NCBI GenBank assembly: GCA_964513465.1
Contig: CAZEMR010000002.1
Location: 57,479-121,478 of the forward strand
Length of the DNA stretch: 64,000 bases
Source of the DNA: an uncultured Hyphomicrobiales bacterium
GTDB lineage: Bacteria > Bacteroidota > Ignavibacteria > Kapaibacteriales > UBA2268
Direction: 5' to 3'
Numbering within the stretch: the first letter of the stretch is position 1; every line of letters begins with the position of its first letter. Shown here piece after piece: positions 38,666 through 58,693 of this stretch. A program made the position numbers and the translations under genes. The notes beneath the pieces are model-generated. The model worked only from the letters and a program-made list of their open reading frames with translations. It did no database searches and was not told the DNA's origin.

Positions 38666-38682
38666 CCGGACCGGACATAGAT

Positions 38683-40731
38683 ATGCTCAATAAACTCAGT
38701 ATTGGCGCCAAATTGCTGATTCTCATCCTTGCCAGCGTTTTCGCGATTTTTGCCGGGATGTATATATATCATTATTTCGTTTCGCGCGCGGCTATTATGA
38801 ATATCGTCCACCGCGAATCTCACAAAACCGCACTCGCTACGGTCAACCGTATCGAGGAGATACTTGGCTCGGTCGAGCGCATTGCCGGGAATATGGCCAA
38901 TTATGCTTCCACGGCGGAATTTTCTACCGGCGAAATTCATAAATATCTTACTTCGACAGTTTCTTATAATGATATAATCTTCGGCGCAACAATGGCTTAC
39001 GAGCCGTTTGCGGCCGACAGCACAATCCGCTATTTTGCGCCATATTACTACCGAAAGGACGGCGCGCTTGGCTATGTCGATCTTGCCGATCCGGATTATT
39101 TCTACCCGAAATGGGGCTGGTATAACCGTCCCCGCGAGGAGGGCCGCGCGTTATGGACAGAGCCATACTACGACGAGGGCGCCGGCAATACGGTGATGAC
39201 CACATATTCCGTGCCGATTTATAAAAATACGGACGGGCGGAGGCAATTCGCCGGGGTGGTGACAAATGACGTCTCGCTTGGCTGGCTGCGGCGCTTTTTC
39301 GATTCGATGTCTTCGTATAAATCCAGCTATTTCTTTTTAATATCGAAGGATGGCACATTTATTTCGCATCCGGATTCCAATCTTATAATGAAAGAAACGA
39401 TTTATTCGGTGGCCGAGCGTCTGGGCGACAGCGTGCTTGCCGGGATTGCCAATCGGATGACATCCGGCGCGACCGGGCTGACGGATTACACAAGCAAAAT
39501 CAGCGGAGTCGAGGGATTTATATATTATATGCCGCTGCGCTCGGCGGAGTGGTCGCTGGGTATTATGTTCAGCGACGACGAGGTGATGGCCGATATGATC
39601 GAATTGAACCGCGAGATTATCATAATCGGGATCGTCGGATTGTTGGTATTAATTATTATCATAATATTAATTTCGCGGACAATCGCCCGGCCGCTGCGCT
39701 ATGCCACCAATGCCGCCGAAGAGATTGCCGAAGGCCGTCTCGATTCGGCCGCGCGGCTTACGGATGAATATCTCGATAAATCCGGGTTGAATAAATATAT
39801 AAATAAATCCACCAAAAATGAATCTATCAGATTATTCGCCGCAATCCGCAAAATGGCCGACAATCTGAATTCGCTCATAAGCCAGGTGCAGCGCTCGGGG
39901 TCGCTCGTTTCGAGCTCGACGTCCGAGATTGCGGCCTCGGCGCGCCAGCTTGAGTCCACCGCCGCCGAGCAGGCCGCCTCGACCAAAGAGGTCACCGCCA
40001 CCAGCCGCTCAATCGCCGACACCGCCGATAAACTGGTCGACACCACAGGCGAGGTGGGCGACAACGTCAGCCGCGCCGCTGCCTCGGCCGAAAGCGGCCG
40101 CGCGGACCTTGCCCGGATGAAGCAGACCATGGATTCCCTGAGCGGCGCCACGCGTTCGATCTCGAAAAAGCTCTCTATTATTAACGACAAGGCCGGGAAG
40201 ATTTCGGCGGTGATTACTACAATCAATAATATCAGCGACCAGACCAATCTGCTTTCGCTAAATGCCGCAGTCGAAGCCGAAAAAGCCGGCGAATACGGCA
40301 AGGGCTTCTCGGTCGTCGCGCGCGAGATAAGCCGGCTATCGGAGCAGACCGCCATTGCCACCCAGGACATCGAATACATGGTGCGAGAAATGCAAAGCTC
40401 CGTGCGCACGGGGGTTAACGAAATGGACAGCTTTGCGCGCGAAATCAAAAGCTCTGTGGGCGAGGTTACTACCATCGGCAGCCATCTGGCTGGTATCATC
40501 GATATGGTAAACAGCCTGAAGCCGCAATTCCGAATGCTGGACGAGGGGATCGGCGGCCAGAGCGAGGGCGCCGGCCAGATAAGCGAGGCCATGACCCAGC
40601 TTGCCGAGGCCAGCGAGCAGACCCGGCAGTCGCTCTCGGAATTCAAGCGGGCCACCGAACAGCTCAACGACGTTGTGCTGAGCCTTCAGCAGGAAGTATC
40701 TAAATTCAAAGTAAAAGAGGATGCCCAATAA
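38683..40731 (+). CDS. methyl-accepting chemotaxis protein (dCache-like sensor)
   Basis: Same architecture as MCP 1. Signalling domain [28 protein letters not shown]. Confidence 0.85.
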
Positions 40732-42828
40732 ATGAGAAAATTACGCGGAAGACTCAGAATCGCCCATAAATTGCTGCTGAGCTGCATATTTTTCGCAATC
40801 CCGATCGGGGTGCTGCTGTGGTATGTGGTCGATGGCCACAATCAGCATATTCGCTTTGCCGAAAAGGAGCGCTCCGGCGCAGAAATAATTGCAAAGGCCG
40901 CCCCTGCGATGGAGCTGATTGCCGAATTCGCAATCGATGATTATATCGCCCGGGTCGGCGGCGAACAGGATTATCGCAGCGCCGAATCCGAAAAGCGCAT
41001 CCATAAGGCGCTGGCCGATCTGGAGCATTTTGCGGGTAAATATTCCGAAATTATGGATTTATCCTCCGGACGGCTCGGGGAGATTGGCAAATCGGATATT
41101 CTGCCGGGGAATATTATGAAAAAATGGGATGTATTTCTGCGCGAAAAATCAGATTTGGGCAATGAGGAATTATCCGAAAATTATATGATTTTTTTGCAAA
41201 ATATTAATTCCCTGATCCGGTATATCGGCGATAAATCCAATCTGATACTCGATCCCGATCTGGATTCGTATTATATGATGGATATTTCGCTGCTTGCGAT
41301 GCCCGATCTGACGCGGCGGCTGGCGGAGTTCACGATAAACGCCGCGAATGCCGCAGCCGATACCGCCGGAAATACCGATATTCCGGGATATATATATAAT
41401 GTGGCGGTCAATGATCTTCTGCCTCGGATCGTAAGCGATGCGGAGGTCTCCGTGCGCGAGGATGCCACTTTCCATGGCGATCATCCCGCCCTCGGCGAGG
41501 ATATGGTCAATAAAGCCTCCGAATTCCGGAACAGAATTGAGAATTATCTGGCAAAATGGCACAGCCCCGGCGCGCAGCCGCTCCGATCGCTTGCGGCTGA
41601 TTCGCATCAGTCCTTTTCGCAGATGCGGGAGTTCTGGCTCGTCTCGAATTCCACGCTGATTGATTTATTAAATAAAAGAATTGATTATTATCAAACCAGA
41701 AAATGGACATCGCTGGCGATCAGTCTGGCGGCCGTTGCGTTAGCCGCGATCGTCGTATTTCTGATTGCGCTGGGCATATCCCGGCGCCTGCGGAGCGTTA
41801 CGCGGATAACCAGCGACATCGCAATGGGCAACATCGCCGGTGCAAAGGAAGCGCTCGAAAAATGCCGCAATCGCGGTACCGGAGTGCGGCTCGATTCGCC
41901 CGGTGCGGCCAAAACCCGCGACGAGAGCGTGATATTGCTTCAGGAAATAAATATTATGACCCACAATCTCGATTCGCTGCTCTCGGAGGTGCGCAATACG
42001 GGTATTCGGATGACCAGCTCGGCGACGGAGATTTCGGCATCGGCGCGCCAGCTCGAATCGACAATCACCGAGCAGGCAGGCTCGATTAATCAGATAAATT
42101 CCACCAGCCGCGAGATTGCCGCAAATTCTGGCGATCTTTCCGATACGATGAAGCTATTGCTCGATCAGGCATCCGAGGCTGCGCGCGTATCCCATAGCGG
42201 AGTCGAGGCGCTCGACGAGCTGAACGAAACCATCCACGCGCTGATTGATTCATCCGAGGAAATTGCCGAAAAGCTCAGCTTTATAAGCTCCAGCGCGACG
42301 AATATCGGCGAGGTGATAACGACGATTACAAAGGTAGCCAATCAGACGAATCTGCTGTCGCTCAATGCCGCAATAGAAGCCGAGAAAGCGGGCGAGGCGG
42401 GCGTCGGGTTTGCCGTCGTTGCGCGCGAGATCAGGCGCCTGGCCGACCAGACAGCCGTCGCCACGCTCGACATCGAGGATATGGTGCGTCAGATGGACGC
42501 CGCCATTCGCGAGGGCGCCGCCGCGGTTGATAATAATTCGCGCCAGCGGGACGTTTCTCAGGAAAAGATTGGCAGGATCAGCAGGGAGTTTACTGTGATA
42601 ATCGACCAGACTCGCGAGATTGAACCCAGATTCGGCGAGGTAACCGAGGGCATGAACGCCCAGAGCGAGAGCGCCCTCACGATAAGTGATGCGATGGCAC
42701 GGCTCAACGATGCCGCGCGCCAGACCCGCGAGGCAATCGGCGAATTCAACCAGGTGACCGCTGCGCTGCGCGATTCGTCCCAGAATCTGCAGAAAGAGCT
42801 TGGGCGATTCAGAACGGAGCAGGAGTAA
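40732..42828 (+). CDS. methyl-accepting chemotaxis protein (helical periplasmic sensor)
   Basis: TM, ~290-aa sensor, TM, HAMP, then an MA domain ([28 protein letters not shown]). Starts 1 nt after MCP 2. Confidence 0.85.
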
Positions 42829-42834
42829 ATATAT

Positions 42835-43299
42835 ATGCTGCTGCTGCTTATGAATATCGGCGATGATTTTTATGCGATCGACATCGACCGTATAGTCGAG
42901 ATCGTGCCATTCGTCAACCTCAAAAAAATCCCGCAGATGCCGCGCTATATCGGGGGTATCCTGAATTATCGCGGACGTCTGACTCCGGTGGTCGATATAT
43001 CCGAATTGCTCGCCGGGCGGCCCACCCCGCCGCTGTTCAGCTCGCGGATAATCCTCGTCAGGTATCGCGGCGTCGATGGCGAAAATCATACGCTGGGCCT
43101 GCTCGCCGGGGCGGTGACCGAGACGATAAATGTTAATCCCGAGCAGATTCAAAGCTCGGGCATAGAGGTAGAAAACGCGCCGTTTCTGAAGGATATAATA
43201 ATCGACGAGCGGGGGATGATCCAGCGAATCGATATTGACAAAACATTGCCAAAAAATATTCACGAAGCCTTGTTCAGATCCGGTGAGGGCGATGCGTAA
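42835..43299 (+). CDS. cheW: chemotaxis coupling protein CheW
   Basis: 154-aa CheW-like domain (FYAIDIDRIVEIVP...GGILNYRGRLTPVVD). Confidence 0.8.
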   Translation: MLLLLMNIGDDFYAIDIDRIVEIVPFVNLKKIPQMPRYIGGILNYRGRLTPVVDISELLAGRPTPPLFSSRIILVRYRGVDGENHTLGLLAGAVTETINVNPEQIQSSGIEVENAPFLKDIIIDERGMIQRIDIDKTLPKNIHEALFRSGEGDA

Positions 43300-44536
43300 T
43301 GCCCAGCTCAAATATCTGATCGAGCGCCGCCTGGGGTTTGATATCGAGACGCTTGGCGCGAGCTACGTCGAAAACGCCGTCCGCCGTCTGAGCGAGAGCT
43401 CGGGCGCGCAGGAAATCGAGGATTATGTTACGAGGGTTGCTGGCTCAACTGAAATGATGGCCGCGCTCATCGAGGAAATTGTCGTACCCGAGACATGGTT
43501 TGTCCGCGACAGCGGGGCATTCGATTTTTTGAAAAATTTTGCAAAAAAAATTCATCCGGAAAAGGGCGGGCCGCTGCGGATACTCTCTGCGCCATGCTCC
43601 ACCGGCGAGGAGCCCTATTCGATTGCGATAGCTTTGCATGAAGCCGGCCTCGGCGCGGAGGATTACTCAATCGAGGCCGTCGATATCAGCTATTGTGCTA
43701 TCGACAAAGCCCGCGCCGCCGAATACACGAAGAATTCCATGCGCGGCGCAAGCAATGAATTCATAGAAAAATATTTTGATCGCGCCGGGGATAAATATAT
43801 ATTAAAAAAGGGATTCAGGCGGAATGTGGAATTTCGGCAGGCCAATATTCTCGATCCGGGATTTGCGGGATCGCGCGCCGAATTCGACATCATATTCTGC
43901 CGCAATCTGATGATATATCTGCGCCCGGATTCGCGGCTGCGGCTGTTCTCGGCGGTCGATCGGCTGCTGCGGCCCGGGGGTGCCCTTTTTACGGGGCATT
44001 CGGAGATAATGTTTTTCAACCGGGCGGGTTATTCTCCATCTGGCGCCGCGCGTTCGTTTGCTTTGATTAAAAATGAAGAGCATGATGCGCCGGCTGCGCA
44101 GGAGAAAAAATTCCCCGATACGAAAAAATATTTGAAAAAAATTCGTGAAAATGCCCGGAAAGATAGAAAACGGCCAATAATTGCTCCGAAGTTCGAAATT
44201 CCGGAGCGGTCAAAAGCACCGGCCGCGGAGGATGCGATATCCGCTAAGTCCGTGCGCCGGCTGGCGGATATGGGGCGCTACGACGAGGCGCTAAGCGGCT
44301 GCGAGCAATTGATCGCCGAGCGCTCGCCCCAAGCGGAACTCTATTATTTGGCGGGACTTATCAACGAAGCGCTGGGCAATTCCGCCCGCGCGGCCGAAAG
44401 CTACAACAAGGCGCTCTACCTCGATCCGGAGCATTACGAAACGCTGATAAATTTATGCTTATTATCCGAAAAAATGGGTGACCTCCGCAAGGCCGAATTG
44501 CTCCGGCGGCGCGCGCAAAAGATTGATTTTAAATAA
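43292..44536 (+). CDS. cheR: chemotaxis protein methyltransferase CheR with C-terminal TPR repeats (FrzF-like)
   Basis: The start is taken at the in-frame ATG 43292, overlapping the cheW stop. The CheR SAM-binding core is LRILSAPCSTGEEPYSIAIAL. C-terminal TPR (AELYYLAGLINEALGNSARAAESYNKALYLDPEHYETLINL). Confidence 0.8.
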   Translation: MRNAQLKYLIERRLGFDIETLGASYVENAVRRLSESSGAQEIEDYVTRVAGSTEMMAALIEEIVVPETWFVRDSGAFDFLKNFAKKIHPEKGGPLRILSAPCSTGEEPYSIAIALHEAGLGAEDYSIEAVDISYCAIDKARAAEYTKNSMRGASNEFIEKYFDRAGDKYILKKGFRRNVEFRQANILDPGFAGSRAEFDIIFCRNLMIYLRPDSRLRLFSAVDRLLRPGGALFTGHSEIMFFNRAGYSPSGAARSFALIKNEEHDAPAAQEKKFPDTKKYLKKIRENARKDRKRPIIAPKFEIPERSKAPAAEDAISAKSVRRLADMGRYDEALSGCEQLIAERSPQAELYYLAGLINEALGNSARAAESYNKALYLDPEHYETLINLCLLSEKMGDLRKAELLRRRAQKIDFK

Positions 44537-44550
44537 ATTAATATATATAT

Positions 44551-45201
44551 ATGGAAAACAAAAAAGAAGAACGGTGCTGGAAGACGATCGGCGTATTGGG
44601 CGACGGAAGCTGCGAGCAGCTCGATAAATTCGTCCACTGCCGCCACTGCCCGGTATATTCGACCGCGGGCCGGAATATTCTCGACCGCCCGGCGCCGGAT
44701 AGCGTCGTCGAAGAATGGACGCTCAACATAGCCAGCGAAAAAGAAACCGAGCCGCCGGATACCATCCCGCTCGTGATTTTCCGGATTTATGGCGACTGGC
44801 TGGCGCTGCGGGCATCGGCATTCCAGGAGATGATCGACGTTCGCGAGGTGCACTCGGTGCCATTCCGCACCAACCGCTTTTTCCGCGGACTGGTCAACGT
44901 CAACGGCGAGCTTCTGCTCTGCCTTTCGATGGCCGCGCTGCTGGATATAATGCAGTCCGGCGAGGATAAATTCTCGCGGATGATCGTCGTCCGAAGCGGC
45001 GCCGACCGCTATGTTTTTGCAGTTCACGAAATGCCCGGCGTCTTGAAAATTCCTACGGAATCGATCGGCAAAACGCCATCGACTCTGGCGAAATCGCCGA
45101 TGGCCTTCTCGCGAGGAATATTCGAATTCGACGGCAAAAAAGTCGGCATGATCGACGAAGCATTCTTTTTTGATTCGATCGCAAGGAGGTTAGTCTGGTG
45201 A
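44551..45201 (+). CDS. CheW-like protein with N-terminal Cys-rich (putative zinc-binding) extension
   Basis: N-terminus CWKTIGVLGDGSCEQLDKFVHCRHCP (C-x10-C-x8-C-x2-C), then a CheW domain (VIFRIYGDWLALRASAFQEMIDV...GLVNVNGELLLCLSM). Confidence 0.7.
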   Translation: MENKKEERCWKTIGVLGDGSCEQLDKFVHCRHCPVYSTAGRNILDRPAPDSVVEEWTLNIASEKETEPPDTIPLVIFRIYGDWLALRASAFQEMIDVREVHSVPFRTNRFFRGLVNVNGELLLCLSMAALLDIMQSGEDKFSRMIVVRSGADRYVFAVHEMPGVLKIPTESIGKTPSTLAKSPMAFSRGIFEFDGKKVGMIDEAFFFDSIARRLVW

Positions 45202-48200
45202 GCGAAAATCAGAATTCGGCCGATATGTTCATGCTGGAGCTGTTCCACACGGAGGTGGAGAACCACGCGCGGACGCTGGAGGAGGGCCTTGTGCGGGTCG
45301 AGGACGATCAGTCGGCGTCGGCGATCGAGCCATTGATGCGTGCGGCGCATTCGATAAAGGGCGCGGCGCGGATAGTTGGTCTGGACGATGCTGTAACATT
45401 GGCCCACGCGATGGAGGATGTTCTCACCGCTGCGCAATCGGGCAAGCTGCGGCTCGGGCAGGCGATAATCGACGAATTGCTCGGCGGGAATGATATTTTT
45501 ATCGATACGATTGACCAGCCAGTTGGCGAAATCGAATCATTTTTTAAATCGAATAAAGAAAAAATCGAGCAAATTTCGAATAATCTGAAAAAATTGATGT
45601 CCGGCGAGAAGCCTGCGTCACAGACCGAATCACAGCCAAAGCCGGCTCCCGAGCCAAAACCCGCACCCCCGAAAAAAGAAGAGCCTCCACAAAAAAATGA
45701 GCCAAAACAGGAATCCGGCGGGGCGGATATGTTTATGCTGGAGCTGTTCCACACGGAGGTGGAGAACCACGCGCGGACGCTGGAGGAGGGCCTTGTGCGG
45801 GTCGAGGACGATCAGTCGGCGTCGGCGATCGAGCCATTGATGCGTGCGGCGCATTCGATAAAGGGCGCGGCGCGGATAGTTGGTCTGGACGATGCTGTAA
45901 CATTGGCCCACGCGATGGAGGATGTTCTCACCGCTGCGCAATCGGGCAAGCTGCGGCTCGGGCAGGACGACATCGATCTGCTGCTCGATTGCAATGATAT
46001 ATTTATAAAAATAATCGATATTTCGCCCGGGGAAATCGAGGGCTATCTTAAGTCGCAGAAAGGGGATATCGAAAATCTGGCCGGAGAGCTGCGCAAAGTA
46101 TTATCAGGCGAACCGCGCGCCGTTAAACCGGTGGAGGCCCCGCCTGAAGAAGAAATTACTCTCGAAAAATTCAGAGAAATTCTAGCGAAAAATTCTTCGC
46201 TGCTTGAGGTCGGACTAATCGAATCCGAGGGCGCGCAGTCGGAGGAATCGCTTCGTGAGCTGGCCGGATTATGCGCAGAAATACGGGAATTATCAGGGAA
46301 ATTCGATTTCCGGACGCTCGGGGAAATGCTCGGCGGGATGGAAAAGGCGCTAAATGCCGCGGCTCGCGGCGAAATCGCACTTGCCGCAGCCGAGATAAAT
46401 TTATTGCTGCGCTCTAATGACGTACTCGCCAGCATCGCCCAGATGGAAGCCTCGGAAATCGAAGATATTATCATCAGCGAATCGGGGATAATCGAGGAAT
46501 TCACCGGCGAATTGCGCGAAATTCCGCAAAAGCGGCCGCCGCGAAAACTCGAATCCGCCGAGCTGCGCGACCCCGCGGAAGCCAGCGACGAAGAGCTTGC
46601 CGATTTCCGCGACCAGGTGGCCGACAGCGCTCTGGTGCTTGAGCGCGGAATAGCCACTGAGGAAGGCATTTCCGCTGAATTTGCGCCAATGATGCGCGCG
46701 GCGTGGTCGATACGCGATGCCGCGCGGAATGTTGGATTCACCAGCATCACACGGCTGGCGGCGGCCATGCAGAGTATGTTCGGGGCTGCGTTCCACGGCC
46801 GGATAGAGCTCTCGGGCGAGCAAATCGAATGGCTTCGGCGGGGAGCCGGAGCGCTCCGCGAGATGATTAGCGCCGGGGCGATGGAACTGCTTGATATATA
46901 TATAAATAAGACGGATGCGATCGACGATCTCGTCCGCCTGATAAGCGATTTCCTGGGCGAGGAGATGTTGCTGCCACCCGCTCCTAAGACAGAAAAGCCG
47001 AAGGAGCTGCCGGCACAGCCCGCCAAAAAAGATTCGCCGCCAAAGCCGGCCGCGCCGGAGCCTCAGGCGCCTCGGCAGGACGACAGCTTCGTTCGAGTGC
47101 TTTCGCAGAATTTAAATAAATTGATGGGGCTGTCGGGCGAGACGCTTGTCAAAGTTAAATCAATTAAGCCATTTTCTACGAATTTACTCGAAATAAAAAA
47201 TTTATTATTCGAATTTAATTCCCTTCACGAAAATATTGTCCAGAATCTTGAGGACAACCCCGCGCTGCCCGAATCGTGGCGGCTTAAGCTGGGCGAATCA
47301 TCCGAAAAGCTCGGCGATATCCGGCAGTTGCTACTCGGGCATATCGATGATTTCGAGATGTTTTCGCGGCGCCTCGAAAACGTCGCAGAGCAGCTATATT
47401 CCGAAGCCGTCGCCACCCGGATGAAGCCATTCGCCGAGGGATTGCACGGCTTCAACCGGATGGTGCGCGATGTGGCCAAAAAGCTCGGCAAGCGGGTGAA
47501 TCTGCGCATCGAGGGCGAATCCACACGGGTCGATCGCGATATACTCGAAAAGCTCGAAGCGCCGCTGAATCATCTGCTGCGCAATGCGGTCGATCACGGA
47601 ATCGAGACCATCGAAGATCGTGAGCGGAAGGGCAAACCCGCCGCAGGAACGCTGACGCTCAGCGCGCGGCACCGCTCGGGAATGCTTATTATCTCGCTTA
47701 AAGACGACGGCCGCGGAATCGATCCCGCGAAGCTGCGCCGCAAGGTAGTCGAAAAGGGCTATGTCAGCGAGGAGATGGCCGCAAAATTATCCACGCCGGA
47801 ATTGATGGATTTCCTCTTTCTGCCGGGATTCTCGACGGCGGAGAAGGTCACGGAAATCTCCGGGCGGGGCGTGGGACTCGACGTCGTATTCTCGATGGTA
47901 AGCGAGGTCGGGGGCACCGTCCGCGCTGATTCGGCGCCGGACGAAGGCACCACATTTTTGCTCGAATTGCCGCTGACGCTCAGCATATTGCGGACGCTGC
48001 AGGTCGGAATCGCCGGCGAGTCGTACGCATTGCCGCTCTCGCGGATCGACCGGATTTTCGATATAAAGGAAGACAACCTTAAAACAATCGAGGATCGGCA
48101 GTATTGCGTATTCGACGGCGAAAACATGGGCATCGTCGATGCCCGCAAGGTGCTCCGGCTCGGCGAGCGCGAGGAATTTTCCGAAAAAATTCATCTGGTA

Positions 48201-48827
48201 ATAATCAGCGACCGGCTGAACCGCTACGGCGTGGTGGTCGATCAGTTCCTTGGCGAGAAAGACCTCGTCGTCATCCCGCTCGACAAAAAGCTGGGCAAGA
48301 TCCCCAACATCAGCTCCGGCGCGATAATGGAGGACGGCTCGATCGTGCTCATACTCGACATCGACGACATGGTGCGCTCGGTGGACGATTTGCTTAATCG
48401 CGAAAAATTAAATATAAAGGAACGCGGCCGCGCAAAAATCGCTCAATTGCGCAAGCGGATTCTCGTTACCGATGATTCGCTTACCGTCCGCGAGGTCGAG
48501 CGCAAGCTATTGGAAAACGCCGGTTATGACGTAACTCTGGCGGTCGATGGCGCCGACGGCTGGAACAAGCTTAGCGCCGGTGAATTCGATCTGGTGATCA
48601 GCGACGTCGATATGCCGCGGATGAACGGCATCGAATTTGTTTCGAAAATCCGGAGCGAAGTCAGATACCGCGATTTGCCGGTAATGATTGTATCATATAA
48701 AGATCGGGAAGAGGACAAGCTGCGCGGACTTGATGCGGGCGCAAATTATTACCTGACCAAAAGCAGCTTTCACGACGAAACGCTGCTCGAGGCGGTGCGC
48801 GACCTGATCGGGGACGCCCGCGAATGA
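45198..48827 (+). CDS. cheA: hybrid chemosensory histidine kinase CheA-CheY (ChpA/FrzE-like) with two identical Hpt domains, a degenerate third Hpt-like domain, HATPase, CheW-like and C-terminal receiver domain
   Basis: Hpt motif AAHSIKGAARIVG occurs twice, and AAWSIRDAARNVG occurs once. CheA-type HATPase (NAVDHGIE...GRGVGLDVV). CheW-like region. REC (ILVTDDS...ISDVDMP...TKS). Pro/Lys-rich linkers. Confidence 0.85.
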   Translation: MSENQNSADMFMLELFHTEVENHARTLEEGLVRVEDDQSASAIEPLMRAAHSIKGAARIVGLDDAVTLAHAMEDVLTAAQSGKLRLGQAIIDELLGGNDIFIDTIDQPVGEIESFFKSNKEKIEQISNNLKKLMSGEKPASQTESQPKPAPEPKPAPPKKEEPPQKNEPKQESGGADMFMLELFHTEVENHARTLEEGLVRVEDDQSASAIEPLMRAAHSIKGAARIVGLDDAVTLAHAMEDVLTAAQSGKLRLGQDDIDLLLDCNDIFIKIIDISPGEIEGYLKSQKGDIENLAGELRKVLSGEPRAVKPVEAPPEEEITLEKFREILAKNSSLLEVGLIESEGAQSEESLRELAGLCAEIRELSGKFDFRTLGEMLGGMEKALNAAARGEIALAAAEINLLLRSNDVLASIAQMEASEIEDIIISESGIIEEFTGELREIPQKRPPRKLESAELRDPAEASDEELADFRDQVADSALVLERGIATEEGISAEFAPMMRAAWSIRDAARNVGFTSITRLAAAMQSMFGAAFHGRIELSGEQIEWLRRGAGALREMISAGAMELLDIYINKTDAIDDLVRLISDFLGEEMLLPPAPKTEKPKELPAQPAKKDSPPKPAAPEPQAPRQDDSFVRVLSQNLNKLMGLSGETLVKVKSIKPFSTNLLEIKNLLFEFNSLHENIVQNLEDNPALPESWRLKLGESSEKLGDIRQLLLGHIDDFEMFSRRLENVAEQLYSEAVATRMKPFAEGLHGFNRMVRDVAKKLGKRVNLRIEGESTRVDRDILEKLEAPLNHLLRNAVDHGIETIEDRERKGKPAAGTLTLSARHRSGMLIISLKDDGRGIDPAKLRRKVVEKGYVSEEMAAKLSTPELMDFLFLPGFSTAEKVTEISGRGVGLDVVFSMVSEVGGTVRADSAPDEGTTFLLELPLTLSILRTLQVGIAGESYALPLSRIDRIFDIKEDNLKTIEDRQYCVFDGENMGIVDARKVLRLGEREEFSEKIHLVIISDRLNRYGVVVDQFLGEKDLVVIPLDKKLGKIPNISSGAIMEDGSIVLILDIDDMVRSVDDLLNREKLNIKERGRAKIAQLRKRILVTDDSLTVREVERKLLENAGYDVTLAVDGADGWNKLSAGEFDLVISDVDMPRMNGIEFVSKIRSEVRYRDLPVMIVSYKDREEDKLRGLDAGANYYLTKSSFHDETLLEAVRDLIGDARE
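45221..45966 (+). repeat. tandem direct duplication inside cheA: two ~245-bp copies (about 45221-45462 and 45725-45966, period 504 bp) with a 232-bp perfectly identical core
   Basis: Nucleotide-identical block atgctggagctgttccacacgg...ctgcggctcgggcagg in both copies. The reverse-frame ORFs 45024..45437 and 45630..45941 in the track share an identical 69-aa peptide, confirming nucleotide identity. Confidence 0.85.
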
Positions 48828-49861
48828 GAATAGGGATCGTCAATGACGTATCGCTGGCGGTAGAGGTGCTGAGGCGCACTATCCACCAGCAGCCCGGACT
48901 CGAAATCGCATGGGTGGCATTCGACGGCGAGGAAGCCGTCCGCAAAAATGCCGACGACAAGGCCGATCTGATACTTATGGATCTCTTGATGCCCGTGATG
49001 GACGGAGTCGAGGCCACCCGGCGGATTATGACCGAAAACCCCACGGCGATTCTGGTGGTGACATCGACAGTAACCGGCAATTCCGGAAAGGTATTCAGCG
49101 CAATGGGTTATGGCGCGCTGGATGCGGTTTGCACCCCCGTATTCGGTCCGGGCGGGAAGATAGAAGGCGCCCGCGATCTGTTGAAAAAAATCGCCACGAT
49201 CGGGAAATTAATTGGCAAAGAAAATATTGAATTAGTAAATCATAATTCGGAAAATGATAATTGCAAAGGCGAACTCCCGCCGATGGTGGCTATCGGCTCA
49301 TCGACCGGCGGGCCGCGTGCGCTGGCGGATATACTCACATGGCTGCCAGGGGATTTTCCTGCGGCGGTGGTGGTAGTCCAGCATGTGGATTCGCAGTTCG
49401 CGCGGGGGCTGGCCGACTGGCTCGACGATCAGACCTCGCTCCGGGTCAAGGTCATCCGCGAGGGCGACCACGCCGAAAAGGGGTATATATATATTGCGGA
49501 AACGAACGACCATGTGGTGCTCGACCGCGACCGGACTTTTTATTATACCCCCGAGCCGATGAATTATCATTACCGGCCATCGGTGAATACATTTTTCAAA
49601 AGTCTTAACGAAAACTGGCCGCGGCGGGATGTGGCGGTAGTGCTCACCGGTATGGGCGACGACGGCGCAAAGGGTTTGCTCGCGCTGCGCGAGGCCGGAT
49701 GGCACACAATCGCACAGGACAAGGAGACATCGGTGGTTTACGGAATGCCCGGTGCGGCGGCCCGGCTGAATGCGGCCATCGAGATATTGCCCGTCGAAAA
49801 AATTGCAGAATCAATTATTAAAAATATTAATAAAAAGGCTAATACAAATGCAGCAAAATGA
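48824..49861 (+). CDS. cheB: chemotaxis response regulator protein-glutamate methylesterase CheB
   Basis: REC domain (LILMDLLMPVMDG) plus methylesterase domain (VAIGSSTGGPRAL, VVVQHVDSQF, DGAKGLLALREAGWHTIAQD). 4-nt overlap with cheA. Confidence 0.85.
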   Translation: MRIGIVNDVSLAVEVLRRTIHQQPGLEIAWVAFDGEEAVRKNADDKADLILMDLLMPVMDGVEATRRIMTENPTAILVVTSTVTGNSGKVFSAMGYGALDAVCTPVFGPGGKIEGARDLLKKIATIGKLIGKENIELVNHNSENDNCKGELPPMVAIGSSTGGPRALADILTWLPGDFPAAVVVVQHVDSQFARGLADWLDDQTSLRVKVIREGDHAEKGYIYIAETNDHVVLDRDRTFYYTPEPMNYHYRPSVNTFFKSLNENWPRRDVAVVLTGMGDDGAKGLLALREAGWHTIAQDKETSVVYGMPGAAARLNAAIEILPVEKIAESIIKNINKKANTNAAK

Positions 49862-51047
49862 ATCAACCCAATTGGATACGAATATTACCGAATATAAAAT
49901 CAAGGTGCTGCTGGTCGATGACCAGGCTATAGTCGGCGAGCAGGTGCGGCGGATGCTCCAGCCCGAGGAGGACATCGAATTCCATTTCTGTCAGGAACCC
50001 TCGAAGGCCGTTCAGACCGCCGCAGAGCTGAATCCCACGGTAATCCTGCAGGATCTGGTGATGCCGGATATCGATGGTCTGACGCTGGTCAAATTCTTCC
50101 GCGCGCACCCACAGCTCAAGGATGTGCCGATGATCGTGCTTTCGTCGAAGGAGGAGGCCGTCACCAAGGCGGACTCGTTTGCCACCGGCGCGAATGATTA
50201 TCTGGTCAAACTGCCCGACCGCATCGAGCTGGTTGCGCGAATTCGTTACCACTCAAAGGGTTATATACATTTACTCCAGCGCAACGAGGCCGAGGACAAA
50301 TTGCGCAAAAGCCAGAAGGCGCTGCTCTCGGAGCTTGCCAAGGCCGGCGAATATTGCGTTTCGCTGCTGCCCGAGGAGATCGACGAAGGCGACATCCGCA
50401 CCCACTGGCGATTTGTGCCATCCGAGCAGCTCGGCGGCGATTCATTCGGCTACCACTGGGTTGATGATGACCACTTCGCGATGTATCTGCTCGACGTATG
50501 CGGGCATGGCGTCGGGTCGGCATTGCTCTCGGTTTCGGGCCTGAACGCAATGCGGATGCAGTCGCTGCCGAACACGGACTTCCGCAGCCCGGAGAGCGTC
50601 TGCAACGGGCTGAATGCGGCATTCCAGATGGAGGCCCACAACGACATGTATTTCACGCTATGGTATGGCGTTTATAATAAAAATTCGCGAGAGATGAAGT
50701 TTGCCACCGCAGGCCATCCGCCGGCGCTGCTCTACGACGCGGCCGGAAATTGCAAACAGCTTATGAACGAGAATTTCATAATCGGCGGGTTGCCCGAATT
50801 TCCGTATAGCGAGAGCTCGACCGAGGTTGCGCCGGGCTCGAGGATGTATATATATTCCGACGGGGTTTACGAAATCACGCGGCCTGACGGCTCGATGTGG
50901 GACCTCGACGGTCTGGAGGATTACATGCGCGAGCCGCACGATGGCTTCGAATCGGAGATCGAGGCGCTTCACCGGCATGTGCAGTCGATGAGCGGCCTCG
51001 AGATTCTGGACGACGATTTCTCGATGCTTAAGATCATATTCGATTGA
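49848..51047 (+). CDS. response regulator fused to PP2C/SpoIIE-type serine phosphatase (RsbU/RssB-like output module)
   Basis: The internal start MQQNEST overlaps the cheB end by 14 nt. REC domain (VLLVDDQ...LQDLVMPDIDG...YLVKL). PPM domain (GGDSFGYHW...LLDVCGHGVGSALLS...TAGHPPALL...YIYSDGVYE). Confidence 0.8.
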   Translation: MQQNESTQLDTNITEYKIKVLLVDDQAIVGEQVRRMLQPEEDIEFHFCQEPSKAVQTAAELNPTVILQDLVMPDIDGLTLVKFFRAHPQLKDVPMIVLSSKEEAVTKADSFATGANDYLVKLPDRIELVARIRYHSKGYIHLLQRNEAEDKLRKSQKALLSELAKAGEYCVSLLPEEIDEGDIRTHWRFVPSEQLGGDSFGYHWVDDDHFAMYLLDVCGHGVGSALLSVSGLNAMRMQSLPNTDFRSPESVCNGLNAAFQMEAHNDMYFTLWYGVYNKNSREMKFATAGHPPALLYDAAGNCKQLMNENFIIGGLPEFPYSESSTEVAPGSRMYIYSDGVYEITRPDGSMWDLDGLEDYMREPHDGFESEIEALHRHVQSMSGLEILDDDFSMLKIIFD

Positions 51048-52846: not shown

Positions 52847-52948
52847 TGATATCCCGGATTATTAATAATTTTGATTTAATAAATAATACGGATTAATTTC
52901 GGCAAAGTTATAAAAATGGCGGCCATTTTACCAGCCGCCATGTATATA

Positions 52949-54235
52949 TCAGATCGATTTCAGCGAATCATAATGCGCGCTGATTGTGCGGTCGATATCC
53001 TCTTCCGTGTGGGCGGTGGATACGAACATCGCCTCGAACTGCGCAGCCGCAAGATATATTCCGCGGTCGAGCATTTCGTGGAAATATTTCCCGTAAGCGC
53101 GGGTATCCGAGCGGGCTGCGGCATCGTAGCTTTCGACCGGGCTCTCGCGGAAGAACATGCAGAGCATCGATCCGGCGCGGTTCATGGCATAACTGCGGCC
53201 AAGCTTGCTCAGATTTTCCTTCAGACCATTTTCCAGATAAATCGCTTTTTCGTTCAGGTCGCTATATATATCCGGATTATTTTTGATATGCTTCAATACG
53301 GCGGCTCCTGCGGCCATTGCTATCGGGTTGCCGCTTAGAGTGCCCGCCTGATATACCGGGCCTTCGGGCGAGATGCTGCGCATGATTTCCTGGCGTCCGC
53401 CGAATGCGCCGACTGGCATTCCGCCGCCGATGACTTTGCCGAAGGTGGTCAGATCGGGCATTATTCCGTAGATTTCCTGTGCGCCTCCGGGAGCAAGGCG
53501 GAATCCGGTCATTACCTCGTCGAATATAAGGACGATTTCCTCCAGATCGCAAAGCTCGCGCAATTGGCGGAGGAATTCCGGGTCGGATTTGACCACGCCC
53601 ATATTGCCGGCGACCGGCTCGATGATGATTGCGGCGATTTCGCCGCGATGTTCGTTGACCGTCCGGCGCACGGATTCGATGTCGTTATAATCCGCCACGA
53701 GGGTCTCCGCTGCGACGGATGCAGGCACTCCGGGGCTGGTAGGCACTCCGAGGGTCAGCGCGCCCGATCCGGCCTTGATCAGGAAGCTGTCGCCGTGGCC
53801 GTGGTAGCAGCCTTCGAATTTGATGATTTTGTCCCGGCCGGTAAAGCCGCGGGCCAGGCGGATGGCGCTCATGGTCGCCTCGGTGCCGCTATTGACCATT
53901 CGCACGAGATCGACCGATGGGACAAGCTCGCAGATGAGCCGCGCCATTTCGACTTCGGGTTCGCAGGGTGCGCCGAAGCTGGTGCCGCGATTGAGGGCGT
54001 CGGCGATTGCTTCCATTATGAACGGCGGATTGTGGCCGAACAGGTGCGGCCCCCAGCTGCCGACATAGTCGATATATTCATTGCCATCGACGTCGCGGAT
54101 GTGAGCGCCCGCGCCGCTTTCGATAAAAATCGGGTCGCCGCCGACTGATTTGAACGCGCGCACGGGGGAATTCACCCCGCCGGGAATATATTCTTTAGCT
54201 TTGCGGAATAGTTCTTTGCTTTTTTCGATTTTCAT
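52949..54235 (-). CDS. hemL: glutamate-1-semialdehyde 2,1-aminomutase
   Basis: The likely start is the internal MKIEKSKELFRKAKEYIPGGVNSPVRAF. PLP-lysine region FDEVMTGFR...KVIGGGMPVGAFGG. The longer N-terminal extension in the ORF track has no support. Confidence 0.9.
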   Translation of the reverse strand: MKIEKSKELFRKAKEYIPGGVNSPVRAFKSVGGDPIFIESGAGAHIRDVDGNEYIDYVGSWGPHLFGHNPPFIMEAIADALNRGTSFGAPCEPEVEMARLICELVPSVDLVRMVNSGTEATMSAIRLARGFTGRDKIIKFEGCYHGHGDSFLIKAGSGALTLGVPTSPGVPASVAAETLVADYNDIESVRRTVNEHRGEIAAIIIEPVAGNMGVVKSDPEFLRQLRELCDLEEIVLIFDEVMTGFRLAPGGAQEIYGIMPDLTTFGKVIGGGMPVGAFGGRQEIMRSISPEGPVYQAGTLSGNPIAMAAGAAVLKHIKNNPDIYSDLNEKAIYLENGLKENLSKLGRSYAMNRAGSMLCMFFRESPVESYDAAARSDTRAYGKYFHEMLDRGIYLAAAQFEAMFVSTAHTEEDIDRTISAHYDSLKSI

Positions 54236-54252
54236 AAATTCCTCCTGATTAT

Positions 54253-56580
54253 TTAACTCCTTTGGTCCAGTTCGATAATTTTTTCGACGATCAGCGCCGC
54301 GCAGAAGGCCGCCGCTTTTTTGCGCATAATCGGGAATCCCATGTATGACGCAATCGGCAGAGTCCACTCGAGCATTGCCAGCAGGTATGGCCGCATGTCG
54401 CGCTCGAAAATAGTCGTGCGGTCGGCATAATTGCGCAATTTCGAGATTATAACATAGGCTTTTTCATAGGCCGGGTCGTCGCTTGCGCAGGTGAATCGCG
54501 GAAGTTCGCTGATCAGATTCTGCATCAAAAGCCCCTGTTCGAATTCTATCACATGGGCGATTTCCTCGTCGGAATCAATGGGCAGCATTTCGAATTTGAT
54601 AATCGGTTCGAGCCGCGCAAAGTCCGATACGATATTGCTTTCGCGGGTTTCCGAAAAGTCGATTACATATATATTTTCGTCCTCGTCGAGCAGAATATTC
54701 TTCATATTCAGGTCGCCATGGATGACGGATTTATACCCTGTGATTTCCTGGTTTTTTCTTTTGGGGAATTCATTTTTTAAAAAATGGAATGGGTTACGCA
54801 CGCTGCGCCCAAGGCAGGGGCAGTGGATCATTTCGTCGCTGCTGTCGATTCCGAGTTCGCTTTTGGCGTCTTCGCATATCGTACTGAAGAGCCTGCCCGG
54901 GTAGTGCTCGTCGTAGAGCCGGACGGGGGTCATGCGGGGCTGGCCGTACCAGGGCTTGAGCACATGGGTGAATACCCGGTCGAAAATTTCGGCGACTTCT
55001 TCGGCGGGGCGCTCCTGAAAATGCTTCTCGAGCCATTCGATACGGCTGTCGGCGCCGCCGATTCCGACGAAATTATACCTTAGCCCGGCGTAATCTCGAT
55101 AGCTTGTGCGGCCCATGACCGAGGTGCTGTTGTTTAAGATAAATTTTTTGACAAAATTGGAATATGCGTTCTCTTCGCGCCGGATAGCTTCCTTCGAAGC
55201 GATCTTCAGCACGGTGGGGAGCTGGCGGCGGCCGTCGCGGTCGAAGCTGTTTACGAGGAATGTGCGCGCGGAGAATCCTCCGGTAAGCGGCTTGAGCACA
55301 ACTTTGCCGGAATCGCCGTAAATTCTGCGGATAATTATATTGAATTCCTCCGGGAAATCCGATTCGCCCTCGAATTCGATTTTAATGCGCTTGTGGGTGC
55401 CGGGGCGGACGTCTTCTGGAACGAAGAGCCAAGCGGCAAAGCGGCCGATATCCGAATCGGGCGAGATATTGCCGACGCCTCCGAGCCGCTCGAGATCGGC
55501 AATGTCGCGGATTATTTCGTTGTGGGTTTTGTCAAGATTTTCGGTATCGAATTTATTCAAAAAAAGTGCGTTCATACGGACATAAATGCCATCTCCTGCT
55601 GCATATTCGTCGAGGGCAGGAAAGAGGGGCTCTTTGACGGATTCGCGGCGCTCGGCGATTCCGACGACGAATGCCGCGGCCGGGGTGACCGGCTGGGTGA
55701 TACGATGGCCGGCCGAGAAGTCATCGGAATCCTCAAAATGCGATGCGAATAATTTTTTTGATTCGCAATATGCGCAAAAGGCGATTCGTTCGGGCTTTTT
55801 ATCTGATGATTTTTCCGCTGCCGAAAAAAAGTCTTTAACGGCTTCATGAATCGGCAGGATTTTCTGTTCGGCGAATTTGATTTCTGCGCAGGGTTTCCCG
55901 TTGATGCCGAGCATCGAGACTGCGTCGATCTCCAGCTTCGATGAGTCCTCGGCGATGAAATAGTCGGCCACGCTGTTGCCATCGGCTGCGATAGCTCCGG
56001 CGATATGGTGGGCGGCAATAAATTCGCCGGGAGCGGCTTCGGTGCCGTCCGATCCGCTGAATCCGGCAATGCCGACTCCGAGAGGGATTTCGTCGAGAAA
56101 TAATTTTTCGATGGATTTTTCCGTTTCCGGAGAATTTTCGCTGCGGCCCCATAGCTCGAGTATACACTGCGATTCGGGGAATTCCATATAGGTATATTCC
56201 CGGCCGCCTGAGCTGAATTCGCTGCGGGTATCGATGGCGAGCTTTTCCGACAGCACGTGCTTCAGCGCTTCGTCGGGGGTGTCGTACATCGTTACCGAGC
56301 GGTCGAGTCCGGACATCGAGATTGCGCTCATTGCGTCGCCCGAGAGCGCGCAGAGGATAGAGCGTCCTCCGCGGCTGCGCATGTTTTTTTCGATTTTCAG
56401 CAGGGAGCGGATTCCTACGCTGGAAATATAATTAACCCGGCCCATATTGATAATGGCATAGCATCTGCTTTCGGGGATATCGGCGGCGCGGGAGTCGAGA
56501 TCGCGGGCGCCGACAGCATCCAGCCGTCCTTCGAGAACGAGAACCGGCACGGAATTTTTTTCTGTAATCTGGATTTCCAT
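54253..56580 (-). CDS. novel fusion: N-terminal STAS (anti-sigma-factor antagonist, SpoIIAA-like) domain + ~320-aa domain of unknown function + C-terminal APH/protein-kinase-like fold domain
   Basis: The STAS domain is VLVLEGRLDAVGARDL...AIINMGRVNYISSVGIRSLL...GGRSILCALSGDAMSAISMSGL, with the conserved Ser within ISSVG. The kinase-like region has an N-lobe (GKVVLKPLTGGFSARTFLV...LPTVLKI) and a catalytic loop (VIHGDLNMKNILLDEDENIYVIDFSETR) of the APH/ChoK/ePK-like type. The gene lies between hemB and hemL in one operon. Confidence 0.6.
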   Translation of the reverse strand: MEIQITEKNSVPVLVLEGRLDAVGARDLDSRAADIPESRCYAIINMGRVNYISSVGIRSLLKIEKNMRSRGGRSILCALSGDAMSAISMSGLDRSVTMYDTPDEALKHVLSEKLAIDTRSEFSSGGREYTYMEFPESQCILELWGRSENSPETEKSIEKLFLDEIPLGVGIAGFSGSDGTEAAPGEFIAAHHIAGAIAADGNSVADYFIAEDSSKLEIDAVSMLGINGKPCAEIKFAEQKILPIHEAVKDFFSAAEKSSDKKPERIAFCAYCESKKLFASHFEDSDDFSAGHRITQPVTPAAAFVVGIAERRESVKEPLFPALDEYAAGDGIYVRMNALFLNKFDTENLDKTHNEIIRDIADLERLGGVGNISPDSDIGRFAAWLFVPEDVRPGTHKRIKIEFEGESDFPEEFNIIIRRIYGDSGKVVLKPLTGGFSARTFLVNSFDRDGRRQLPTVLKIASKEAIRREENAYSNFVKKFILNNSTSVMGRTSYRDYAGLRYNFVGIGGADSRIEWLEKHFQERPAEEVAEIFDRVFTHVLKPWYGQPRMTPVRLYDEHYPGRLFSTICEDAKSELGIDSSDEMIHCPCLGRSVRNPFHFLKNEFPKRKNQEITGYKSVIHGDLNMKNILLDEDENIYVIDFSETRESNIVSDFARLEPIIKFEMLPIDSDEEIAHVIEFEQGLLMQNLISELPRFTCASDDPAYEKAYVIISKLRNYADRTTIFERDMRPYLLAMLEWTLPIASYMGFPIMRKKAAAFCAALIVEKIIELDQRS

Positions 56581-56593: not shown

Positions 56594-57583
56594 TTAATAT
56601 TCGTAATCGGAATCAATTAATTTTGCGAGGTCTTTGGCAAAATATGTCAGTATCATATCCGCGCCTGCGCGCTTGATCGAAATGGCAGATTCGTGCATAA
56701 CGCGCGCTTCGTCGATCCATCCGTTGGCGGCGGCGGCTTTTATCATCGAATATTCGCCGCTGACCTGGTATGCTGCTGTGGGCATGCAGAATTCTTCTTT
56801 TACGCGGCAGACGACGTCGAGATATGGCATTGCGGGCTTGACCATTACGATGTCGGCGCCTTCGAATATGTCTTCGTCGACTTCGCGCAGAGCCTCGCTG
56901 GCGTTGGCGATGTCCATCTGGTGTGATTTGCGGTCGCCGAATTGCGGAGCGGATTCGGCAGCGTCGCGGAATGGTCCGTAGAATCCGGAGGCATATTTGG
57001 CAGCATAGCTCATAATCGGCAGGTTTGGATATTCGTTTTCGTCGAGTGTCCGGCGGATTGCGGCGACCCGGCCATCCATCATGTCCGAGGGGGCGACCAT
57101 ATCGGCGCCTGCGCGTGCGTGGCTCAGCGCCATCTGGGCCAGCAGATTGATTGTGACGTCGTTTAGTATCTGGTTGCCGTGGATTATTCCGCAGTGGCCG
57201 TGGCTGGTGTATTCGCAGAGGCATACATCGGTGATGACCACGAGGTCGGGGATTTCCTCTTTGAGCGCTTTGACCGCGCGCTGGACGATGCCGTTTTCGG
57301 CGTAGCCCTCGCTACCGGCTTCGTCTTTTTCCGAAGGAATTCCGAATAGCATTATAGCAGGGATGCCCAATTGGTGGACTTCCACGCACTCGGAGATGAG
57401 ATTATCGATGGATAGCTGAAATACGCCGGGCATGGATTTGACTTCGTTTTTTACGCGTTTGCCCGGGCATACGAACATTGGGTAGATCAGATCGGATTTG
57501 GCGAGCGTGGTTTCGCGCACCATCCGGCGAATAACGGGATTCCGGCGGAGCCTGCGGAACCGCTTGAATTCAAATTCCAGCAT
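56594..57583 (-). CDS. hemB: porphobilinogen synthase (delta-aminolevulinate dehydratase)
   Basis: Active-site region [15 protein letters not shown], a Zn-type Cys triad and the Schiff-base Lys region. Confidence 0.9.
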
Positions 57584-57620: not shown

Positions 57621-58547
57621 TTATAAATTGCCAAGAATTTTGTCTGCGCCGCGATCGAGCAGAGTCCGCGCAAGGCGTCTGCCTAAGGATTCCGGATCGT
57701 CCGCCGGGCCGTCGATAGCGTCGCGGTATTGTTCGCTGCCATCTACGGAGGCGACCATGCCCTCTATGCGGATACTCTCGCCGTCGAGGTCGGCAGTGGC
57801 TGCTATCGGATACTGGCAGCCTCCGCCCAATGCGGCGAGGAATGTCCGTTCGGCGGTGGTGCATATCCGGGTCGGCCGGTGATCGATTTTTTCGAGCAAT
57901 CGTCGGAGAGCTTCGTTATCGGAATTGATCTCGACTCCGAGCGCGCCCTGTCCGACGGCGGGGATCATTACGTGCCGAGGAATTACGGACGAAATATGCT
58001 GCTCCAGCCCCAGGCGCTCCACACCGGCGCGGGCGAGAATTACGGCGTCCCATTTTGATTCCTGAAATTTTCGGATGCGGGTGGGAACGTTCCCGCGAAG
58101 GTCCTCGGTCGTCAGGTCCGGCCTCAGTGCGAGCAATTGCGCGCGGCGGCGGGTCGACCCGGTGCCGACGGTGCCTCCGGACGGAATATCGTCGATAGTC
58201 GTGCCCCTGGTGCGGGCAATCAGTACGTCCTCGCGGGCGTGGCGTTCGGTGACTGCGGCTATCGCAAGGCCTTCGGGGACGGCGGTCTCGAGGTCTTTCA
58301 GGCTGTGGACTGCGACGTTGATTTCGCCGGAAAGCAGCGCGTTTTCGAGCTCTTTGGTGAATAGTCCCTTGCCGCCGATTTTCGCGAGCGGCGTGTTGAT
58401 GAATTTGTCGCCTTTGGTTTTAATATGTTTTAATTCGATATATATATCCGGAGCGATAGCTGCAATCCTTGATTTGATAAAATTGGACTGCCACAACGCG
58501 AGATCGCTCGATCGGGTGCCGATGATTATTTTTCGAGGGAAATTCAT
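57621..58547 (-). CDS. hemC: hydroxymethylbilane synthase (porphobilinogen deaminase)
   Basis: IIIGTRSSDLALWQS and AVHSLKDL motifs, plus the C-terminal cofactor-binding Cys region (ALGGGCQYPIA). Confidence 0.9.
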   Translation of the reverse strand: MNFPRKIIIGTRSSDLALWQSNFIKSRIAAIAPDIYIELKHIKTKGDKFINTPLAKIGGKGLFTKELENALLSGEINVAVHSLKDLETAVPEGLAIAAVTERHAREDVLIARTRGTTIDDIPSGGTVGTGSTRRRAQLLALRPDLTTEDLRGNVPTRIRKFQESKWDAVILARAGVERLGLEQHISSVIPRHVMIPAVGQGALGVEINSDNEALRRLLEKIDHRPTRICTTAERTFLAALGGGCQYPIAATADLDGESIRIEGMVASVDGSEQYRDAIDGPADDPESLGRRLARTLLDRGADKILGNL

Positions 58548-58632: not shown

Positions 58633-58667
58633 ATAAAAAAGCCGGACGCCACATTTCGGACGTCCGG
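58633..58667 (-). terminator. rho-independent terminator after the 920-aa T9SS cargo gene (minus strand)
   Basis: 8-bp perfect stem gccggacg/cgtccggc. On the minus strand it is followed by TTTTTTATTT. Confidence 0.6.
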
Positions 58668-58693
58668 CCAATTAGCCGATTATCGGCAATTAA

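Follow-up and report, generated by a model that had tools for sequence, protein, structure and literature searches.

The 64,000-nucleotide stretch analyzed here (the window) belongs to contig CAZEMR010000002.1 of an uncultured bacterium that GTDB places in the Kapaibacteriales (GenBank assembly GCA_964513465.1). It encodes on its reverse strand a 775-aa protein in which a STAS domain, a middle domain and a kinase-like domain are fused; we refer to the gene and its product as X. STAS proteins are phosphorylated by RsbW-type kinases, and SpoIIE/RsbU-type phosphatases of the PPM/PP2C class remove the phosphate again. We lean toward reading X as a STAS-gated enzyme that forms the output, or a branch point, of a partner-switching pathway based on such a PP2C phosphatase, and the X family probably gives this known scheme an output of a new type. 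An invariant phospho-acceptor site in X and the recurrence of partner-switching genes beside its homologues in other genomes are among the observations on which this reading is built.

Gene X encodes a conserved three-domain protein

The open reading frame (ORF) of gene X begins with ATG, with a GGAG sequence 7 nt 5’ of the start (Table 1). An AlphaFold2 model of the full-length protein, computed with 36 homologues as input, reached a pLDDT of 89 and a pTM of 0.74. The protein is 100% identical to the database entry ‘MAG: STAS domain-containing protein [Candidatus Kapaibacterium sp.]’, and its homologues are named either ‘STAS domain-containing protein’ or ‘anti-sigma factor antagonist’. Small stand-alone STAS proteins have a length of about 110 aa; X has 775 aa and three domains and is not a stand-alone anti-sigma antagonist, despite such naming in some databases.

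The N-terminal domain has the STAS fold, and residues 3-105 match the Pfam STAS family (PF01740) at 48.8 bits, well above the cut-off of 22.6; the score against the NCBIfam ant_ant_sig superfamily (TIGR00377), 49.1 bits, fell just under its cut-off of 53.45. The initial annotation, made from the sequence alone, had described a SpoIIAA/RsbV-type STAS domain with an ISSVG phospho-serine context at this end of the protein, and both the family match and the motif bear this out. Ser54 aligned with the phospho-serine of SpoIIAA (the Ser58 position), which is the first S of DSSGLG and is mutated to Ala in 1tid/1til. In an alignment of 180 full-length family members, position 54 was Ser in all 179 members aligned there. 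The motif YISSxG(I/L)R is common to the STAS domain of X and the small STAS proteins encoded in neighboring partner-switching modules.

The C-terminal domain matches the Pfam family TCAD9 (PF19974) at 173.7 bits (cut-off 40; E 9.7e-51) and, with less margin, the APH family (PF01636) at 29.2 bits (cut-off 23.2). The motifs cited for an APH/eukaryotic-like kinase fold in the initial annotation (LTGGFS, VLKI, HGDLxxxN and DFS) are all present. The catalytic constellation of the APH/choline-kinase group, comprising the Gly-rich loop, the Lys-Glu pair, HxDxxxxN and the Asp of DFx, is likewise complete. Residues G434, G435, K459, E469, H621, D623, N628, D641, D653, R656, E658 and R716 are invariant (180 of 180), and among the conserved features the invariant SDFARLE segment and R716 are specific to the X family. 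Profile searches had been recommended for the separate segments: those for STAS and APH scored above their cut-offs, whereas the Hanks-type Pkinase family (PF00069) reached 15.2 bits against a cut-off of 31.7, matching at the catalytic loop alone, and HEM4 gave no match.

A word-indexed search returned 111 X homologues with 28-46% identity, nearly all of them 715-820 aa long and with both STAS and TCAD9 domains. An exhaustive search of 1.84 billion representatives identified 149 clusters at E <= 1e-30, almost all of which were full-length X-type proteins or fragments of the same architecture. When one genome was taken per GTDB species, 295 stretches encoded an X relative, with hosts in the Cloacimonadota, Acidobacteriota, Verrucomicrobiota, Thermodesulfobacteriota, Armatimonadota, Sumerlaeota, Latescibacterota, Bacteroidota and other phyla; the carriers in the Bacillota are Syntrophomonas, Sporotomaculum and Formimonas. 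An architecture shared by 111 full-length homologues and about 295 species rules out an artefact of fusion or frameshift, so that the STAS-kinase fusion first read from a single sequence is genuine. Given the near invariance of Ser54 and of the catalytic residues, we regard the fusion as real and old, and the alignment indicates strong purifying selection on both the phospho-acceptor and the kinase chemistry. The architecture had also been put forward as one not yet described. Both of its recognizable domains were already in Pfam, but a literature search on the themes of TCAD9, STAS with APH, and Che with PP2C and STAS, whose coverage of the literature was incomplete, found no description of the family.

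Partner-switching genes recur beside gene X

We examined the gene neighborhood of X in 80 species-level loci (identified below by L numbers), calling neighbors by profile searches of all ORFs, tblastn and Pfam spot checks in flanks of up to 8 kb where the contig allowed. Partner-switching genes adjoined X in 29 of these loci. The full triad of a PP2C phosphatase, an RsbW-type GHKL kinase (PF13581, about 140 aa) and a small STAS protein (about 100-130 aa) was found in 13 loci. A GHKL kinase gene alone abutted X in 7 loci, a PP2C gene alone stood beside it in 5, GHKL and small STAS genes in 2, PP2C and GHKL genes in 1, and a small STAS gene alone in 1. Counted by component, a PP2C gene was present in the flank in 19 of the 80 loci, in several phyla and nearly always no more than 1.5 kb away, and an RsbW-type kinase gene stood beside X in about 21. 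Up to 1.5 kb from X, partner-switching genes had a density of 22.4 per 100 kb; at a distance of 3-8 kb, taken as an internal control, it was 0.9-1.7 per 100 kb, so that the enrichment near X is approximately 15-fold.

The order of these genes is not uniform. PP2C - GHKL - STAS - X occurs in L007 and L071, and X faces STAS - GHKL - PP2C in L023, L025, L026, L031 and L053. The sensor domains of the adjacent phosphatases vary by phylum, being REC (receiver), 5TMR-LYT (once fused to GHKL) or dCache-HAMP, and the hosts that carry X with partner-switching neighbors span at least six phyla. This diversity implies that the association originated, or was retained, more than once. On the basis of gene neighborhood, we infer that the STAS domain of X is a substrate of a PP2C/RsbW-type phosphorylation cycle.

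In Sporotomaculum syntrophicum (L045), a 5TMR-LYT membrane sensor, a SpoIIE phosphatase and a GHKL kinase of the RsbW-like type are combined in a single 574-aa protein. Its gene is divergent from X and is followed by a gene for a 100-aa STAS protein.

A chemosensory cluster and a candidate phosphatase in the window

The initial annotation had pointed to a response-regulator phosphatase at the end of a Che-like cluster, and Pfam matches confirmed a gene for a REC-PP2C protein that follows cheB, 3.2 kb from X; its true start is likely the ATG at 49848. The cluster encodes, in order, three methyl-accepting chemotaxis proteins (MCPs), CheW, CheR-TPR, CheW, a hybrid CheA-REC with three Hpt domains, CheB and then REC-PP2C. 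Two of the three tandem MCPs have Cache-type sensors, and CheA is a 1209-aa protein that ends in its receiver domain. X was the only STAS-domain protein detected in the window, and jackhmmer and tblastn searches of the window found no RsbW-type GHKL kinase (PF13581).

The proposal that REC-PP2C is the phosphatase of the X STAS domain, made from this window alone, gains comparative support from the PP2C genes that flank X elsewhere and in particular from five loci with the order CheB - REC-PP2C - X, three in the Acidobacteriota (L048, L049 and L082) and two in the Verrucomicrobiota (L062 and L070). In these five the genes lie on a single strand with gaps of about 30-130 nt. Their REC-PP2C proteins are 37-51% identical to that of the window over the full length, and their CheB proteins 34-59% identical. 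The complete order in L048 is MCP - CheR - CheW - CheA-REC - CheB - REC-PP2C - X - STAS - GHKL, and L049 and L082 are alike. This conserved neighborhood supports the link between REC-PP2C and X.

Several observations weigh against the reading of X as a gated output of this pathway. The flanks of 51 of the 80 loci contained no partner-switching gene. In the window, X and REC-PP2C are on opposite strands, and X is probably co-transcribed with heme genes (see below); moreover, the homologues to which this X is closest (40-46% identity) have no PP2C neighbor on the available contigs. Conversely, for the closest metagenomic relatives of REC-PP2C that are preceded by CheB (L090 and L092, 53-54% identity; L098-L100, 39%), the surrounding 7 kb contained neither X nor a small STAS or GHKL gene, and the genes that follow the phosphatase there are SGNH/AlgX-like, histidine-kinase or unrelated. 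Because such relatives lack a nearby X, the pairing of PP2C and X is recurrent, not obligatory. Finally, the nearest solved folds to the kinase domain of X are mostly small-molecule (or peptide) kinases.

Two side observations concern genes that follow the phosphatase. In L090 and L092 one or two SGNH/AlgX-like genes (polysaccharide acetyltransferase-type) come after PP2C. In the window itself, the TTG start of an alkaline-phosphatase-family gene (PF00245, E 1.7e-49) overlaps the REC-PP2C stop by 4 nt, which suggests translational coupling; this gene was not found beside REC-PP2C or X in any other locus.

Proposed mechanism and the kinase of Ser54

In the mechanism that we propose, the Wsp-like array would control REC-PP2C through phosphotransfer from the hybrid CheA, and REC-PP2C would strip the phosphate from pSer54 of X. 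The phosphorylation state of Ser54 would gate the attached ALDC-like (acetolactate-decarboxylase-like; described below) and kinase-like domains, and would thereby switch the APH-like kinase on or off toward a substrate that may be a small molecule, a peptide or a protein, with the ALDC-like domain binding a ligand or substrate or providing a scaffold. The kinase that phosphorylates Ser54 would be either an RsbW-type enzyme encoded elsewhere in the genome or X’s own kinase domain.

The latter option is the core of the initial proposal, a self-contained switch in which the APH-like domain phosphorylates Ser54 of its own chain or of another protomer, replaces the GHKL kinase and is reset by REC-PP2C. 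The window, with its REC-PP2C and X, no RsbW-like GHKL kinase and no other STAS protein, fits such a switch, as do five loci (L044, L057, L062, L070 and L077) in which a PP2C gene stands beside X and the flank contains no GHKL gene. Ser54 and the catalytic residues are co-invariant, and the pTM of the model may indicate a defined arrangement of the domains. There is also a second, shorter fusion of STAS and APH domains in the Verrucomicrobiota locus L070.

The kinase genes found beside X in other loci speak against this arrangement. An RsbW-type kinase directly adjoins X in about one quarter of the loci (about 21 of 80), and in the 7 loci where it is the only partner-switching gene, the X STAS domain is its sole nearby partner, on which it presumably acts. 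The STAS motif of X is the same as that of the small STAS substrates of neighboring GHKL kinases, the kinase domain most resembles solved enzymes that are not STAS kinases, and paralogues that have the first two domains of X without the third (see below) show that the STAS module needs no kinase in cis. The frequent RsbW-type neighbors weaken the idea of a self-contained switch with a different class of kinase without refuting it, and they make the APH-like domain look more like a regulated output than like a replacement STAS kinase; that it replaces the GHKL kinase is unsupported. We consider the self-contained switch possible but doubtful, and we hold the same tentative view of its fullest form, in which the TCAD9 domain is the Ser54 kinase of a one-polypeptide switch with a Che-controlled PP2C reset and an ALDC-like ligand sensor. 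Were the TCAD9 domain the Ser54 kinase, STAS kinases would for the first time extend beyond the RsbW/SpoIIAB family, and Che-like pathways would have a new way to yield an output.

The neighboring triads raise another alternative, in which X would take the place that sigma-B has in rsbV-rsbW-sigB: an RsbW-like protein would hold X inactive through its STAS domain until a dephosphorylated small STAS protein competed X free. In L007 and L071, where the order is PP2C - GHKL - STAS - X, gene X occupies the usual position of a target gene, and 13 loci have a complete triad plus X. Yet the strictly invariant Ser54 argues that the STAS domain of X is itself phosphorylated, and the triad is lacking in the window and in most other loci, so we judge sequestration of X improbable.

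In the shorter L070 protein (388 aa), an APH-family kinase domain (PF01636, E 1.7e-10) follows STAS with no middle domain between them; its gene lies 1.5 kb downstream of X, and its kinase part is only weakly similar to that of X. It looks like a separate STAS-kinase fusion, which shows that fusions of this kind arose on more than one occasion.

The middle domain has an ALDC-like fold

Between the STAS and kinase-like domains, the initial annotation had left a region of about 320 aa in which it recognized no motif. Although no Pfam family matched this region at E <= 0.1, it is confidently predicted to adopt the double-lobed fold of alpha-acetolactate decarboxylase (ALDC) and PTD012 (C11orf54), to which it is about 10% identical, and single lobes additionally matched PPC/DUF296 proteins. 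Conservation is highest in a glycine-rich loop of the first lobe, ELGxAFGxGGxG, in which G170 is invariant. Within residues 112-415 no His or Cys is conserved in more than 70% of the 180 aligned members, so that conserved ligands for a Zn site are lacking, and for this reason we read the domain as non-catalytic. A catalytic ALDC or an esterase was rejected on the same ground; the domain is very unlikely to be a decarboxylase or an esterase. A HemD identity was also rejected, given the ALDC-like fold and the absence of a HEM4 Pfam match at E <= 0.1.

In Acidobacteriota loci, genes 2-6 kb away from X specify paralogues of about 410 aa that consist of STAS and ALDC-like domains and have no kinase domain. 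Pfam detects the STAS part alone in these proteins, and hhalign aligned them with columns 14-289 of X at a probability of 99.1% (E 6e-19). These kinase-less paralogues show that the STAS and ALDC-like pair is a unit in its own right.

The position of gene X among heme genes looks incidental

Pfam matches confirmed that hemC, hemB and hemL flank X on the same strand, as first described. The intergenic gaps are short (37 nt between hemC and hemB, 13 nt between hemB and X, and 17 nt between X and hemL). The mechanically called hemL ORF (52949-54367, reverse strand) has a GTG start 44 codons further upstream and overlaps the 3’ end of X; the true start is likely the ATG at 54235, which has AGGAGG 6 nt upstream. 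Terminator-like hairpins with stems of 10-11 bp followed by a T run lie at both ends of the unit, one closing it and one before hemC, and no internal terminator-like site was found on the coding strand. Because the gaps are tight and the hairpins stand at the unit ends only, co-transcription of X with hemC, hemB and hemL is likely.

This setting suggested that X might be a component or regulator of the heme pathway, either as a substitute for HemD, whose gene is not seen in the operon, or as a kinase that senses tetrapyrroles through its ALDC-like domain and regulates Hem enzymes. The tight hemC-hemB-X-hemL unit counts in favor of such a role. However, when 86 homologue loci were searched by tblastn for HemB, HemC and HemL, no match to any of the three appeared, and none was present on the contigs of the three closest X homologues (40-46% identical). 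The 80 species-level loci, and six further homologue contigs that include those three, thus have no hemB, hemC or hemL near X. The homologue contexts that we looked up individually were unrelated to heme, and the order hemC-hemB-X-hemL was found in this genome alone. Since no other homologue locus has hemB, hemC or hemL nearby, the heme context of X looks incidental; together with the missing HEM4 match, this makes a heme role highly improbable. The idea of a meaningful, conserved heme context did not survive the comparison, and the striking operon position should not serve to infer the function of X.

Two further genes lie beyond the hairpins. Upstream of hemC, parted from it by the strong hairpin there, is a gene for a 920-aa protein with an Omp28 domain, several HYDIN/ASH/Cep192-type Ig-like domains and a type IX secretion system (T9SS) C-terminal sorting domain. 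Just past the hairpin that follows hemL, a 109-aa ORF with a DUF4234 match (E 4.6e-10) occupies the space where the Che/PP2C and hem units converge.

Table 1. Features of the window and of homologue loci discussed in the text (window coordinates unless a locus is given).
Feature	Coordinates	Strand	Basis or remark
Gene X, 775-aa STAS / ALDC-like / TCAD9 kinase-like protein	54253..56580	-	ORF, Pfam domains, AlphaFold2 model
STAS domain of X, SpoIIAA/RsbV type	56251..56580	-	residues 1-110
Ser54 codon, predicted phospho-acceptor	56419..56421	-	alignment to SpoIIAA phospho-serine
Middle domain of X, acetolactate-decarboxylase/PTD012-like double-lobed fold, non-catalytic	55336..56229	-	residues ~118-415
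Kinase-like domain of X, Pfam TCAD9, APH/choline-kinase fold	54256..55323	-	residues ~420-775
REC-PP2C (SpoIIE) response-regulator phosphatase, candidate Ser54 phosphatase	49770..51047	+	Response_reg and SpoIIE Pfam matches
Wsp-like chemosensory cluster	36464..49861	+	Pfam
Alkaline-phosphatase-family gene	51044-52516	+	PF00245
DUF4234 ORF, 109 aa	52517-52846	-	DUF4234 match
Terminator-like hairpin closing the hemC-hemB-X-hemL unit	52916..52941	-	consensus scan
hemL	52949..54235	-	Aminotran_3 Pfam match; start taken at internal ATG
hemB	56594..57583	-	ALAD Pfam match
hemC	57621..58547	-	Porphobil_deam Pfam match
Second terminator-like hairpin, before hemC	58640..58669		consensus scan
Omp28 protein gene, 920 aa	58694-61456	-	
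Kinase-less STAS + ALDC-like paralogues	L048:14470-15702; L023:16179-17402; L026:4618-5865; L082:14600-15835		
STAS + APH fusion, 388 aa	L070:11815-12981		PF01636
5TMR-LYT + SpoIIE + GHKL protein, 574 aa	L045:6049-7773		Sporotomaculum syntrophicum
PP2C followed by SGNH/AlgX-like gene(s)	L090:8289-9650; L092:2305-5119		

Significance and comparison with known systems

Partner-switching modules are widespread, and their outputs beyond the control of sigma factors are mostly unknown. The X family, conserved in about 300 species of many phyla, would add a defined output, in which phosphorylation of the switch on Ser would lead on to a second phosphotransfer. In this genome and in a few others there is also a testable, end-to-end Che pathway of the ‘alternative cellular function’ kind, running from MCP through CheA and REC-PP2C to a STAS-kinase protein.

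The chemosensory cluster invites comparison with the Wsp system of Pseudomonas, in which the order is MCP - CheW - CheR(TPR) - CheW - CheA-REC hybrid - CheB - response-regulator output. The window cluster has the same order. It differs from Wsp in having three MCPs, a CheA with three Hpt domains and an output regulator that carries PP2C in place of GGDEF.

The middle domain shares its fold with alpha-acetolactate decarboxylase and PTD012, but it has no sequence-family match and lacks their conserved Zn-binding histidines. The kinase domain is just 9-14% identical to APH, choline kinase, glucosamine kinase, PsiK and LxmK, and unlike them it is fused to STAS and ALDC-like domains. TCAD9 (PF19974) owes its name to the vWA-MoxR-VMAP ternary conflict systems, in which kinase-like domains of this family occur (Kaur et al. 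2020, PMC7159879), and the name is glossed in PMC10910872; as judged from its sequence, the C terminus of X is an APH-like kinase domain with active residues, of the kind mentioned in PMC7159879. The name prompted us to consider an anti-phage or ternary conflict role. We rejected it for X, as no vWA, MoxR or VMAP gene was found among the annotated neighbors in the window and on nine homologue contigs, and a PADLOC defence search gave nothing significant, with two marginal matches to the catalytic loop only. The context of X, in contrast to that of the vWA-MoxR-VMAP systems, is one of signal transduction.

In the classical SpoIIAA/RsbV - SpoIIAB/RsbW - SpoIIE/RsbU switches we find the same PP2C and RsbW-type GHKL proteins that recur as neighbors of X. 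The STAS domain of X differs in forming the N terminus of a 775-aa protein with two further domains. X has no evident sigma factor target, and the window encodes no GHKL kinase.

A direct functional parallel is Anabaena All4160, in which an N-terminal STAS domain is fused to a glycosyltransferase; genetic and in vitro evidence indicates that HenR, a REC-SpoIIE phosphatase, and Alr3423, a Ser kinase, control it (bioRxiv 10.64898/2026.04.08.717354). The enzyme of All4160 is a sugar transferase, it has no ALDC-like domain and its input is not Che-like, whereas X has a kinase-like domain; the likeness is a functional analogy only. What the two have in common is a phosphorylatable N-terminal STAS domain on an enzyme and a receiver-domain PP2C, which in Anabaena is the activating phosphatase, so that the logic of the partner switch is aimed at an enzyme rather than at a sigma factor. 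Of the systems compared here, X most resembles, in its way of working, a partner-switching STAS protein joined to an enzyme.

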